Origin: Nannocystis sp. RBIL2
GTDB taxonomy: Bacteria; Myxococcota_A; Polyangia; Nannocystales; Nannocystaceae
NCBI RefSeq assembly: GCF_026626745.1
Contig: NZ_JAPNJW010000002.1
Coordinates: 1,382,151-1,446,150 of the forward strand
Reading direction: 5' to 3'
DNA: 64,000 nt
Shown: positions 48,598 to 50,151 of the stretch, in pieces
Position numbering within the stretch: the stretch's first letter is position 1
Layout: every line of letters starts with the position of its first letter
Notes under the pieces: generated by a model
Seen by the model: only the letters and a program-made list of their open reading frames with translations
What the model was told of the DNA's origin: nothing
Database searches by the model: none
Translations under genes and position numbers: made by a program

Positions 48598-50151
48598 ATG
48601 AATTCGACGAATACGAACGGCAACGCGAGCGCGGGCGGCCAGTCGGCCGCAGAGGTCAACCCATTGACGGAAGTGGCAGCGCTGCGTGCGGGCTACGACA
48701 GCGTGAACGGCGACGGCAGGGTCACGAGCGCCGTCAGCGGAGGAACGGTGGAGCGTGGAGGTATCAGCGAGTCAAGAATCCGGGTCTGTTTGGACGTCGA
48801 GCAGGTGTGCCAGGCGCTTGGAATCAGCTGGTCGCTGGGAGCCAGCATCCCGGGGGTCGGCGGCGCGAGCCGGAAGTCCAAGTTCGTCAACTCGATCAAG
48901 ATCACGACTTACAGCCTCACGATCGTGGTCTATTCCCAGCACGTCCAAAAGACAGAAACGCTGGCCGATGCCCGCCTGTCGCCCGGCGTCGAGCCGCCGC
49001 AGGGCGACGAGGCGCTCCGCCGGTTCTTCCAGGCCTACGGCGACTCCTTCATCACGTCGCTGACGACCGGCAGCGAGTATTACGCTGCGTACGTGCTCCA
49101 TGCGCAAACCAAGGAGCAGCAACGCGGCCTCGAGGCCGGTCTGCAGGCCGAGGGCATCTACAACGGGGTGAAGTTCGAGGCCGCGCTGCAGGGTAAGCTG
49201 GACAAGTGCATCCAGTCGGTCAACGTGAACGTCACCTTCGATCAACAGGTCGCCGGCATCGCGAACCCCAGCTTGCCCACGCCCGACAAGATGATCCAGT
49301 ACGCGATCGACTTCCCGTCGCTCGCGGTCACCGCGCCGGTGGTCCTCGGATACGAGTACGACGGCTACGAACACCTGCCCGAGATCACCACGTCCTTCGA
49401 GCCCATCGCGAAGAACCGGCGCTACTTCATCGGTGACAAGGCCGTGGGCGGCCTCACCGCCAAGGAAGCCCAGGTCCAGGGGCTCGACAATCAGCTCCTC
49501 TGGTTGCAGGAGACCTACAAGTTCTACGGTGGCTATGTCGACCCCAACGTCGACCGGGTAAAGGCCATGAGCGGCAAGGAGCTGAGCGCCATCCACGCGC
49601 AGAAGAGCGCGTATGCGCAGGATCCGATCCAGTCCTTCACGGAGCCTGCGCTGCCCTCGCTCAACGAGGGGACGCCGGAGCTCAGCCTTGCCGGGGGCAC
49701 TTCGGAACAGAAGGGCAGCACCGGGGGGAACCCGTACGACGACGTGCCGTCTCCCCTGGACAACGTCCAAAAGCGCACGCGCATCACCCAAATCAAGATG
49801 AGGATGGGCGATCGCGTCGACAAGCTGAGCACGACCTACCTCGACCAGAACGGGGACACGGAGAAGGAACACGGGGGGACCGGCGGCAAGGAGGACCGCT
49901 CCATCAGGGTCGAGGCCGGGCAATTCGTCGTCCGGGTCACGGGCAAATACAACAAGAAGATGGACAAGATGACTTTCTTCCTCAGCAATGGCCAGAGCGT
50001 GACCGCGGGGGGCACCAGCGGGGACAAGGAGTTCGATCTGGCACCGCCGTCCGGCAATTTCGTGCTGGGCTTCCGGGGGAGGAGCGGCTCCGAGTACGAC
50101 GCCATCCAGCTCGTCTACGCCCACTTCAACCCGGCCAAGTGGTCTAGATAA
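48598..50151 (+). CDS. MACPF-like pore-forming domain fused to a C-terminal jacalin-like (beta-prism) lectin domain
   Basis: 517 aa with no signal peptide. The N-terminus has ALRAGYDSVNG and FFQAYGDSFITSLTTGSEYYAAYVL (MACPF-like pattern). The C-terminus reads EHGGTGGKEDRSIRVEAGQFVVRVTGKYNKKMDKMTFFLSNGQSVTAGG...FVLGFRGRSGSEYDAIQLVY (jacalin pattern). There are many A/T-ending codons. Confidence 0.75.
   Translation: MNSTNTNGNASAGGQSAAEVNPLTEVAALRAGYDSVNGDGRVTSAVSGGTVERGGISESRIRVCLDVEQVCQALGISWSLGASIPGVGGASRKSKFVNSIKITTYSLTIVVYSQHVQKTETLADARLSPGVEPPQGDEALRRFFQAYGDSFITSLTTGSEYYAAYVLHAQTKEQQRGLEAGLQAEGIYNGVKFEAALQGKLDKCIQSVNVNVTFDQQVAGIANPSLPTPDKMIQYAIDFPSLAVTAPVVLGYEYDGYEHLPEITTSFEPIAKNRRYFIGDKAVGGLTAKEAQVQGLDNQLLWLQETYKFYGGYVDPNVDRVKAMSGKELSAIHAQKSAYAQDPIQSFTEPALPSLNEGTPELSLAGGTSEQKGSTGGNPYDDVPSPLDNVQKRTRITQIKMRMGDRVDKLSTTYLDQNGDTEKEHGGTGGKEDRSIRVEAGQFVVRVTGKYNKKMDKMTFFLSNGQSVTAGGTSGDKEFDLAPPSGNFVLGFRGRSGSEYDAIQLVYAHFNPAKWSR

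Follow-up and report, generated by a model that had tools for sequence, protein, structure and literature searches.

A leaderless MACPF-jacalin protein of Nannocystis sp. RBIL2 as candidate glycan-targeted pore former

The pores of complement and perforin are formed by MACPF proteins. To our knowledge, few bacterial MACPF proteins have been characterised, and those of which we are aware reach their targets either via a membrane-binding prism or via a separate partner protein. Here, we analysed a stretch of 64,000 nucleotides from Nannocystis sp. RBIL2 (contig NZ_JAPNJW010000002.1, positions 1,382,151 to 1,446,150; hereafter the window), in which a gene at 48598–50151 on the plus strand encodes a protein with an N-terminal MACPF-type domain and a C-terminal jacalin-related lectin domain. 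We consider it highly probable that a MACPF fold and a jacalin lectin are combined in this one protein, which belongs to a divergent, largely unannotated MACPF subfamily in which a fused jacalin lectin would serve for targeting. It is also rather likely, in our view, that the protein is a soluble, leaderless, two-domain pore former of the MACPF/CDC superfamily which would act as a glycan-targeted toxin.

The proteins that come closest in architecture and fold are those of the Mpf class, namely Plu-MACPF/Mpf1Aa1 (2qp2), Mpf2Ba1 (8b6v), and GNIP1Aa/Mpf3Aa1 (6fbm). They likewise comprise about 480–520 amino acids (aa) and have the same order of a MACPF domain at the N-terminus and a membrane-targeting C-terminal three-fold beta-prism, an architecture that is known from experimentally proven bacterial pore formers (PMC10344926). 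In the Mpf class, too, a short segment lies ahead of the MACPF core, which in Mpf2Ba1 is cleaved for activation (PMC10344926). The Mpf prism, however, is of the metal-coordinating, membrane-associated MABP type with three DLN motifs (PMC10344926), whereas the Nannocystis prism is a jacalin-type lectin with GG and GxxxD motifs and lacks the DLN triad; inspection of residues 366–517 found no DLN tripeptide. Furthermore, the Nannocystis prism is preceded by an additional conserved stretch of helices, about 100 aa in length. A profile of the family yielded no match to 2qp2, 8b6v, or 6fbm at E ≤ 10, and the similarity is structural only. Since there is no detectable sequence relation and the prism is of a different type, the Nannocystis protein is not filed as an Mpf member. 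An earlier note on this DNA, made from the sequence alone, had proposed the same domain logic as in Plu-MACPF, which applies to the architecture but not to the type of prism.

By sequence, the closest protein is Aeg-L (9uj0, “Aegerolysin-L pore”), for which no describing paper was found, followed by the PlyB-type components of aegerolysin/MACPF toxins. PlyB-type MACPF proteins depend on a separate aegerolysin for membrane recognition, whereas in the Nannocystis protein the lectin is fused and no partner gene occurs among the flanking open reading frames (ORFs) or is conserved across the compared loci. Closest in logic are the lectin-guided natterin-like proteins and lamprey LIP (jacalin plus aerolysin, 5zu4) as well as Vibrio cholerae cytolysin (beta-prism lectin, 1xez/4gx7), whereby the pore module of these proteins is a small beta-barrel of the aerolysin or alpha-hemolysin type and not a MACPF domain, and the lectin of natterins is N-terminal. 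In both sequence and structure, the C-terminal domain is matched best by banana lectin, ZG16p, Heltuba, and griffithsin, which have the GG loop and GxxxD motifs in common with it, griffithsin with three GxxxD motifs like the family consensus. These are stand-alone lectins, whereas the Nannocystis lectin is tethered to a MACPF domain and its middle site is degenerate (N452). From ferns, the insecticidal MACPF pore former IPD079Ea of Ophioglossum pendulum has been described (478 aa, ∼52 kDa; PMC10161957, PMC11702926). We liken it to the present proteins by description only, the fern Adiantum nelumboides holding two copies of the MACPF-jacalin family. The IPD083 proteins of Adiantum have been reported to be without known domains (PMC6669613) and thus do not belong to this family. 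The combination of MACPF and jacalin has already been seen in databases, since a census of jacalin chimeras from 2017 names MACPF, without detail, among the partner domains (PMC5536079). No study on bacterial MACPF-jacalin proteins was found in the literature.

The gene, its putative signals, and the segments of its product are located as follows:

48398–50210, plus strand: conserved cassette of the gene with ∼200 bp of upstream and ∼60 bp of downstream sequence, the sole stretch in common with the orthologous locus of another N. pusilla genome (locus L001)
48495–48524, plus strand: sigma-70-like promoter candidate TTGACC-18-GATACT, a consensus match only
48588–48592, plus strand: Shine-Dalgarno-like AGGAG, 5 nt before the ATG and kept in N. 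pusilla
48598–50151, plus strand: coding sequence of the MACPF-jacalin protein, 517 aa plus stop
48598–48672, plus strand: N-terminal leader (aa 1–25), predicted to be disordered (model confidence pLDDT < 50), not a signal peptide
48673–49377, plus strand: MACPF core (aa 26–260) with the entry motif A-G-Y-D-S (aa 31–35), long bent strands, and two helical clusters
48790–48915, plus strand: first candidate transmembrane hairpin region, TMH1 (aa 65–106), helical in the model, with alternating residues around a G/P-rich turn (aa 85–89)
49024–49080, plus strand: MACPF signature region (aa 143–161), F-x3-Y-G-D-S-F-x6-G-S-E-Y, family consensus YGDSF-x6-GG-EY
49099–49230, plus strand: second candidate transmembrane hairpin region, TMH2 (aa 168–211), two helices in the model, with alternating residues (aa 178–187 and 192–204) around a Y-x-G-G/V turn
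49378–49692, plus strand: conserved helical region between core and lectin (aa 261–365), with long helices 286–309 and 316–341 and a pLDDT of about 90
49693–50148, plus strand: jacalin-related lectin domain, beta-prism I (aa 366–517)
49807–49821, plus strand: sugar-binding-type GxxxD motif 1, G404-D-R-V-D408, which aligns with GDVVD of banana lectin
50086–50100, plus strand: sugar-binding-type GxxxD motif 3, G497-S-E-Y-D501, which aligns with GDFID (banana lectin) and GSLID (ZG16)

The motifs of the N-terminal part agree with the MACPF layout that the earlier note had read from a G.GYD-type entry and an F..YGD core, since the protein has A-G32-Y-D34-S35 at the entry and F143-x3-Y147-G-D-S-F-x6-G158 in the core. 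A profile was built from 28 N-terminal domains of the family and searched against the PDB. It matched the MACPF pore protein 9uj0_A with E = 1.2e-5 (profile positions 8–189 to chain residues 15–193), whereby the alignment extends from QGY(D/N) at the entry up to and including the signature. Astrotactin-2 was matched by this profile over the signature with E = 0.076, and the signature region was aligned with YGDRFIADFIKGGHFYA of 9uj0 and YGSHYIAEALYGSE of astrotactin-2. The earlier note had named the assignment of the N-terminal domain to a non-pore-forming fold as the outcome that would speak against its proposal; neither the predicted structure nor the profile search led to such an assignment. 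The Pfam MACPF model PF01823 was matched at E ≤ 0.01 by 17 of 94 examined homologues (best 2.1e-6), and the homologue P0011 reached 22.0 bits. An NCBIfam scan of the Nannocystis protein matched no family. Across the family, G148 and G158 are invariant (94/94), and D149 (93/94), F143 (92/94), and E160 (89/94) are nearly so; all family-invariant residues are present in the Nannocystis protein.

The predicted structure is in line with these motifs. It starts with a strand (residues 46–64), the first helical cluster (65–106), a second strand (107–127), and a helix that ends in F143-x3-Y147-G-D-S-F, and continues with a strand that contains G158 (150–167), the second helical cluster (168–211), and a further strand (212–219). 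This amounts to an antiparallel sheet of four strands, bent and flanked by the two helical clusters, as is characteristic of the MACPF fold. Column-wise hydropathy across the 94 homologues revealed a family-wide alternation of hydrophobic and polar residues in both helical clusters, with G/P-rich turns in the centre (aa 74–84/85–89/90–102 and 178–187/188–191/192–204). The highest period-2 hydrophobic moments of the whole protein were obtained for windows starting at aa 190–193 (2.0–2.4, compared to a mean of 0.55 and a standard deviation of 0.44), and windows starting at aa 73–75, within the TMH1 candidate, are also among the highest. To be helical in the soluble state and yet to be coded as a beta-hairpin is a hallmark of the transmembrane hairpin regions of MACPF/CDC proteins. 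It is mainly because the helical clusters carry this conserved beta-hairpin-type amphipathicity that we prefer a genuine pore former to a MACPF protein without lytic activity. The helical region between core and lectin is the most constrained segment in the comparison with N. pusilla, with a ratio of nonsynonymous to synonymous substitution rates (dN/dS) of 0.06, and its conserved residues include R274, Y307, Y310, D315, and D328.

The C-terminal domain matches Pfam Jacalin (PF01419) over residues 370–504 with E = 4.2e-15 and 56.8 bits against a cutoff of 22, covering profile positions 2–134 of 136, so that the jacalin-like beta-prism which had been suspected from the sequence can be assigned. 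Its predicted structure has the three-fold beta-prism I fold and superposes on mannose-specific jacalin-related lectins (Foldseek E = 1e-10, TM score 0.83–0.86 to ZG16 and banana lectin). When the full model was compared to the PDB with Foldseek, the best 50 matches all fell on the jacalin domain and none on the N-terminus. The sugar-site motifs of mannose-type jacalin-related lectins are present in the form of the glycine-rich first loop (GG loop; G373, G376-G377) and two GxxxD loops, while in the degenerate middle motif N452..D456 the glycine is replaced by N452, a position at which 66 of 94 family members have G. The family consensus shows three GxxxD motifs, one per Greek key, whereby G and D of motif 1 are found in 53/94 and 58/94 members, and those of motif 3 in 67/94 and 60/94. 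GG and GxxxD loops form the sugar sites in the crystal structures of banana lectin, ZG16p, and griffithsin, and from these motifs the Nannocystis protein would be expected to bind glycans. Together, the profile match to 9uj0, the Pfam MACPF matches of the homologues, and the unambiguous jacalin domain support the earlier suggestion of a candidate sugar-targeted pore-forming toxin.

The gene itself consists of one uninterrupted ORF of 517 aa plus stop, and its ATG at 48598 is the first start after the preceding in-frame stop, with no further in-frame start upstream. Its GC content at codon positions 1/2/3 is 0.59/0.44/0.88, a pattern as in the other long genes of the window. Because of this pattern, the hundreds of homologues, and a dN/dS below 0.5, the ORF represents a genuine gene rather than one of the chance ORFs of 70% GC DNA. 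The antisense ORF 48772–50124 on the minus strand (450 aa), which overlaps nearly the entire gene, is a shadow ORF typical of high-GC DNA and is not to be annotated. The gene lies in an A/T-richer islet, as had been noticed before, with a local GC content of 0.62–0.65 across 48.0–50.2 kb compared to 0.70 window-wide. The deficit is found in codon positions 1 and 2, since the protein is rich in Lys, Asn, Ser, Thr, and Tyr, so that the lower GC content reflects the amino acid composition. The codon usage is host-like, and a foreign codon usage, which had been claimed alongside the islet, is ruled out by the GC content at third codon positions (0.88), which lies inside the 0.82–0.95 span of the other long ORFs in the window. 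The promoter candidate is the sole promoter-like site in 48200–50450 (0.2 expected), and both of its hexamers are kept in N. pusilla (TTGACC / GATAAT).

The gene is under purifying selection, with dN/dS values of 0.31 and 0.46 in comparison to two Nannocystis orthologues. Its nearest relative is a “jacalin-like lectin” of N. pusilla with 96% identity; an M16 peptidase near the gene is 98% identical to its N. pusilla counterpart. Judged by these identities, the window stems from N. pusilla, a predatory myxobacterium, or from a strain very close to it. In blastn, the N. pusilla locus gave a single match to the window, 48398–50210, with 94.3% identity over 1819 bp, whereas the flanks are unrelated. 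In N. bainbridge the match is confined to the coding region (79% nucleotide and 69% amino acid identity). Since the flanks differ in both comparisons, the gene is located at three different places in the three Nannocystis genomes. No repeats were found that bracket the cassette 48398–50210. A comparison of seven loci, from Nannocystis, Pseudolabrys, Pseudoduganella, a Burkholderiaceae member, an alphaproteobacterial metagenome-assembled genome (MAG), and Sorangium, revealed no conserved neighbour gene. Thus, nothing at these loci points to an immunity gene, to a partner of the aegerolysin type, to a protease that would activate the protein, or to a secretion gene dedicated to it, and the gene is organised as a stand-alone unit. 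In the case of aegerolysin, there was no match among the 20 flanking ORFs scanned and none conserved at the seven loci, the whole genome not having been searched.

Residues 1–25 evolve almost neutrally, with a dN/dS of 0.69 against N. pusilla compared to 0.06–0.35 elsewhere in the protein. Pore formers without signal peptides include pneumolysin, ClyA, and the fungal pleurotolysins. In the MACPF-jacalin family, the segment ahead of QGYD measures 21 aa in the median among 113 homologues with complete N-termini, and about 4–5 of these 113 (P0010, P0022, P0027, P0057) carry Sec or lipoprotein signals. Because a few members carry such secretion signals, it can be argued that the family acts outside the cell. 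Oligomerisation of Mpf2Ba1 requires the loss of 25–30 N-terminal residues (PMC10344926), and by analogy one may speculate that aa 1–25 of the Nannocystis protein constitute a pro-segment.

If the protein is a pore former, it would be released in a non-classical manner, possibly through lysis or in vesicles, and the disordered first ∼25 residues would possibly be trimmed. The mannose-type jacalin lectin would then dock on glycans of the target surface and concentrate the monomers there, which in turn would drive the assembly of the MACPF domains into a ring. The helical clusters aa 65–106 and 168–211 would refold into amphipathic beta-hairpins (four-stranded hairpin pairs), and after insertion these hairpins would jointly form a large beta-barrel pore. 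A mechanism of ring assembly and hairpin insertion has been demonstrated for Mpf2Ba1 and other MACPF proteins (PMC10344926). In such a process, the fused lectin would fill the targeting role that is taken by the membrane-binding prism in Plu-MACPF and Mpf2Ba1 or by the separate aegerolysin in the case of pleurotolysin B. The targets could be prey microbes or grazers among the eukaryotes, for instance amoebae, nematodes, or insects, and the candidate ligands are yeast or fungal mannan, glycoconjugates of amoebae, nematodes, or insects, and surface polysaccharides of bacteria. We lean slightly, and weakly, towards eukaryotic targets because the nearest lectins are mannose-specific and the family also occurs beside a gene for a leucine-rich repeat (LRR) and NEL (novel E3 ligase) protein and in a fern. 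The protein may play a role in predation or defence.

Several points weigh against a glycan-targeted pore former, and some of them would also fit a non-lytic lectin or adhesin that recognises glycans of prey, of kin, or of the organism's own exopolysaccharide, with the MACPF domain serving as a scaffold for oligomerisation or binding without pore formation. The Pfam MACPF match of the Nannocystis protein remains below the cutoff of 21.5, with 15.1 bits and E = 0.027 over residues 97–175 only, and the predicted structure was made from an alignment of just 11 sequences. Compared to the canonical signature Y/W-G-T/S-H-F/Y-x6-G-G, frame and spacing are kept, but T/S-H is replaced by D-S family-wide (D in 93/94), and the second glycine of the GG pair is S159 here (G in 57/94 family members). 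This non-canonical signature would suit a non-lytic protein, as would the occurrence of astrotactin-2, a non-lytic MACPF protein, among the matches, and the databases name the protein only “jacalin-like lectin”. Plu-MACPF, the founding bacterial MACPF protein, was reportedly found to be without lytic activity by Rosado et al. in 2007. As far as the lectin is concerned, the GxxxD motifs occur in only ∼50–70% of the family members, so that sugar binding may not be universal. The N-terminus has neither a hydrophobic core nor a basic start, which agrees with the missing signal peptide stated in the earlier note, and no export route is evident for the leaderless majority of the family. Experimental activity has been reported for no family member. 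For a non-lytic lectin, however, the strict family-wide alternation around glycine-rich turns would be hard to explain without membrane hairpins, and the nearest structural matches are proven pore formers; we therefore consider a non-lytic lectin unlikely.

The missing signal peptide, in this protein and in most relatives, would also be compatible with an intracellular suicide or anti-phage effector that is inactive in the cytoplasm and perforates the own inner membrane upon infection (abortive infection), similar to bacterial gasdermins. The same applies to the variable, insertion sequence (IS)-rich region and the changing contexts of the gene. It would not be expected from such an effector, though, that no PADLOC model matches the protein or three of its relatives, that no protease, sensor, or other partner is conserved at the seven loci, where unrelated housekeeping genes or debris lie beside the gene, and that some members carry Sec or lipoprotein signals. 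Moreover, there is no obvious cytoplasmic ligand for a glycan-binding lectin, and homologues are present in a fern genome, which makes this explanation very improbable. We give slightly less weight still to the idea that the gene is a decaying relic, that is, an ORF which looks intact but has no function and was left behind by a horizontally acquired gene amid pseudogene debris. The surroundings are indeed fragmentary, with a chimera of a sigma-54 activator and IS66, a YebC fragment, and broken IS66 copies, and decayed copies are found in relatives (P0008 of N. pusilla and Sorangium So ce1128). Nevertheless, the full-length ORF is undisrupted, dN/dS is 0.31–0.46 and not ∼1, the promoter-like site and the Shine-Dalgarno sequence are kept, and no family-invariant residue has been lost.

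A MACPF domain with a fused mannose-type lectin would constitute a third, glycan-addressed targeting solution and would link MACPF proteins with the lectin-guided natterins (aerolysin) and V. cholerae cytolysin. Predatory myxobacteria would thereby gain a candidate lytic effector, and the family extends to ferns, which have already served as a source of insecticidal MACPF proteins. We regard this as a testable addition to a known theme, the principle of which will not surprise specialists and which opens no long-standing question.

Residues 1–370 were used as a phmmer query against 1.84 billion cluster representatives. The search yielded 693 proteins with E ≤ 1e-3, of which 137 also reached E ≤ 1e-30; their length is mostly 500–550 aa, and Pfam Jacalin is carried by 81 of the 94 homologues examined. 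The family thus comprises about 690 clusters (50% identity) of mostly leaderless proteins from several bacterial phyla and one fern. Its members come from Myxococcota, Alpha-, Beta-, and Gammaproteobacteria, Cyanobacteria, and the fern Adiantum nelumboides, whereby this taxonomic picture, like the seven loci compared, is a sample and not a census. Public databases label the family only as “jacalin-like lectin” or “hypothetical”; hundreds of entries under the former name probably are toxins that form pores. It is conceivable, and we put it forward tentatively, that the family is a large, essentially unrecognised, and mostly leaderless MACPF clade, in which a lectin prism replaces the lipid- or metal-binding prism and which is shared by soil and freshwater bacteria and at least one fern. 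If true, this would imply an inter-kingdom transfer of a glycan-targeted perforin. Such a protein, if active, would represent a new class of sugar-addressed giant-pore toxins that predatory myxobacteria could use against prey or grazers and that might be of pesticidal use.

The Adiantum nelumboides contig JAKNSL020000280.1 (38% GC, 874 kb; locus L009) contains two near-identical MACPF-jacalin copies at 10064–11962 and 48784–50682. They are located about 38.7 kb apart and are merged in one 968-aa gene model (P0011), in which the MACPF part is uninterrupted. Both are 32–37% identical to bacterial members, which is about the distance of the bacterial members among each other, and may have arisen by inter-kingdom transfer. 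Very large proteins were also found, namely P0018 from a Cyanobacteriota MAG (1915 aa) and P0047 with its cluster mates (4253–4265 aa), in which MACPF-like and jacalin modules are each present three times in tandem. One member of the P0047 cluster is from Candidatus Methylumidiphilus, and P0047 additionally has a BNR/sialidase-like domain. These giant proteins may be either the same toxin module in a multi-headed form or the product of gene calls that were merged. At the other extreme, P0008 from N. pusilla (356 aa) is a truncated copy, the C-terminus of which no longer aligns with the jacalin domain and which looks frameshifted, and Sorangium sp. So ce1128 retains an internally deleted remnant (6000–6402 of locus L008) that matches two short internal pieces only. 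The MACPF-jacalin gene has been lost repeatedly in myxobacteria and is a typical accessory gene that is gained and lost. In the Burkholderiaceae MAG (47% GC; locus L006), the LRR-NEL gene (1509–4331, minus strand) adjoins the MACPF-jacalin homologue. LRR-NEL proteins are an effector type that type III secretion delivers into eukaryotic cells, and this neighbour hints at an organism that interacts with eukaryotic hosts.

In the Nannocystis window, the surroundings of the gene consist of gene fragments and IS remnants, as the earlier note had described. An IS5 fragment, which had been placed beside the gene, was rejected, since the adjacent remnants belong to the IS66 family and match TnpB_IS66 and DDE_Tnp_IS66. 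The only IS5-like element among the scanned ORFs is the ORF 62071–62928 (plus strand), which lies at a distance of 12 kb and contains DUF4096, a domain found in transposases of the IS4/IS5 type. The Pfam matches near the gene are TnpB_IS66 with E = 1e-29, DDE_Tnp_IS66 with E = 3e-29 and 8e-15, as well as C-terminal pieces. The IS66 parts are distributed as follows:

44085–44456, plus strand: sigma-54-activator fragment fused to an IS66 TnpB fragment
45884–46108, minus strand: IS66 C-terminal piece
50996–51762, plus strand: IS66 orf1 and orf2 (TnpB_IS66), intact-looking, downstream of the MACPF-jacalin gene
52612–53805, plus strand: further IS66 pieces
within the ORF 52348–53790, minus strand: further IS66 pieces

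In the chimeric ORF 44085–44456, residues 2–34 correspond to a sigma-54 interaction domain and residues 54–91 to IS66 TnpB, which looks like the scar of an IS66 insertion into a regulator gene. A composite transposon around the MACPF-jacalin gene was considered and rejected, as only one short inverted duplicate was found, which lies inside the IS66 debris. This is an 87-nt inverted duplicate of the orf1 end (51327–51413 and 52827–52913). An OsmC-like gene (52151–52747, minus strand) is located between two broken IS66 transposase pieces of opposite orientation (52151–53805). Directly downstream of the MACPF-jacalin gene, residues 25–52 (about 50380–50460) of the ORF 50306–50845 (plus strand) match the start of the second YebC/TACO1 domain with E = 6e-6, just below the cutoff, and this fragment is a gene remnant. 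On the upstream side, the ORF 47300–47869 gave only sub-threshold matches to COQ7, rubrerythrin, and phenol hydroxylase, so that a ferritin-like origin is plausible. Just past the IS66 debris, at 54746–56871 (plus strand), adjacent genes of the GSCFA family and of a WcbI-like type (polysaccharide biosynthesis) may mark the edge of a surface-polysaccharide locus. Farther away, 22828–26571 (minus strand) encodes a 1246-aa protein with a fungalysin (M36) metallopeptidase and a PA domain, and this protease could be part of the predatory repertoire.

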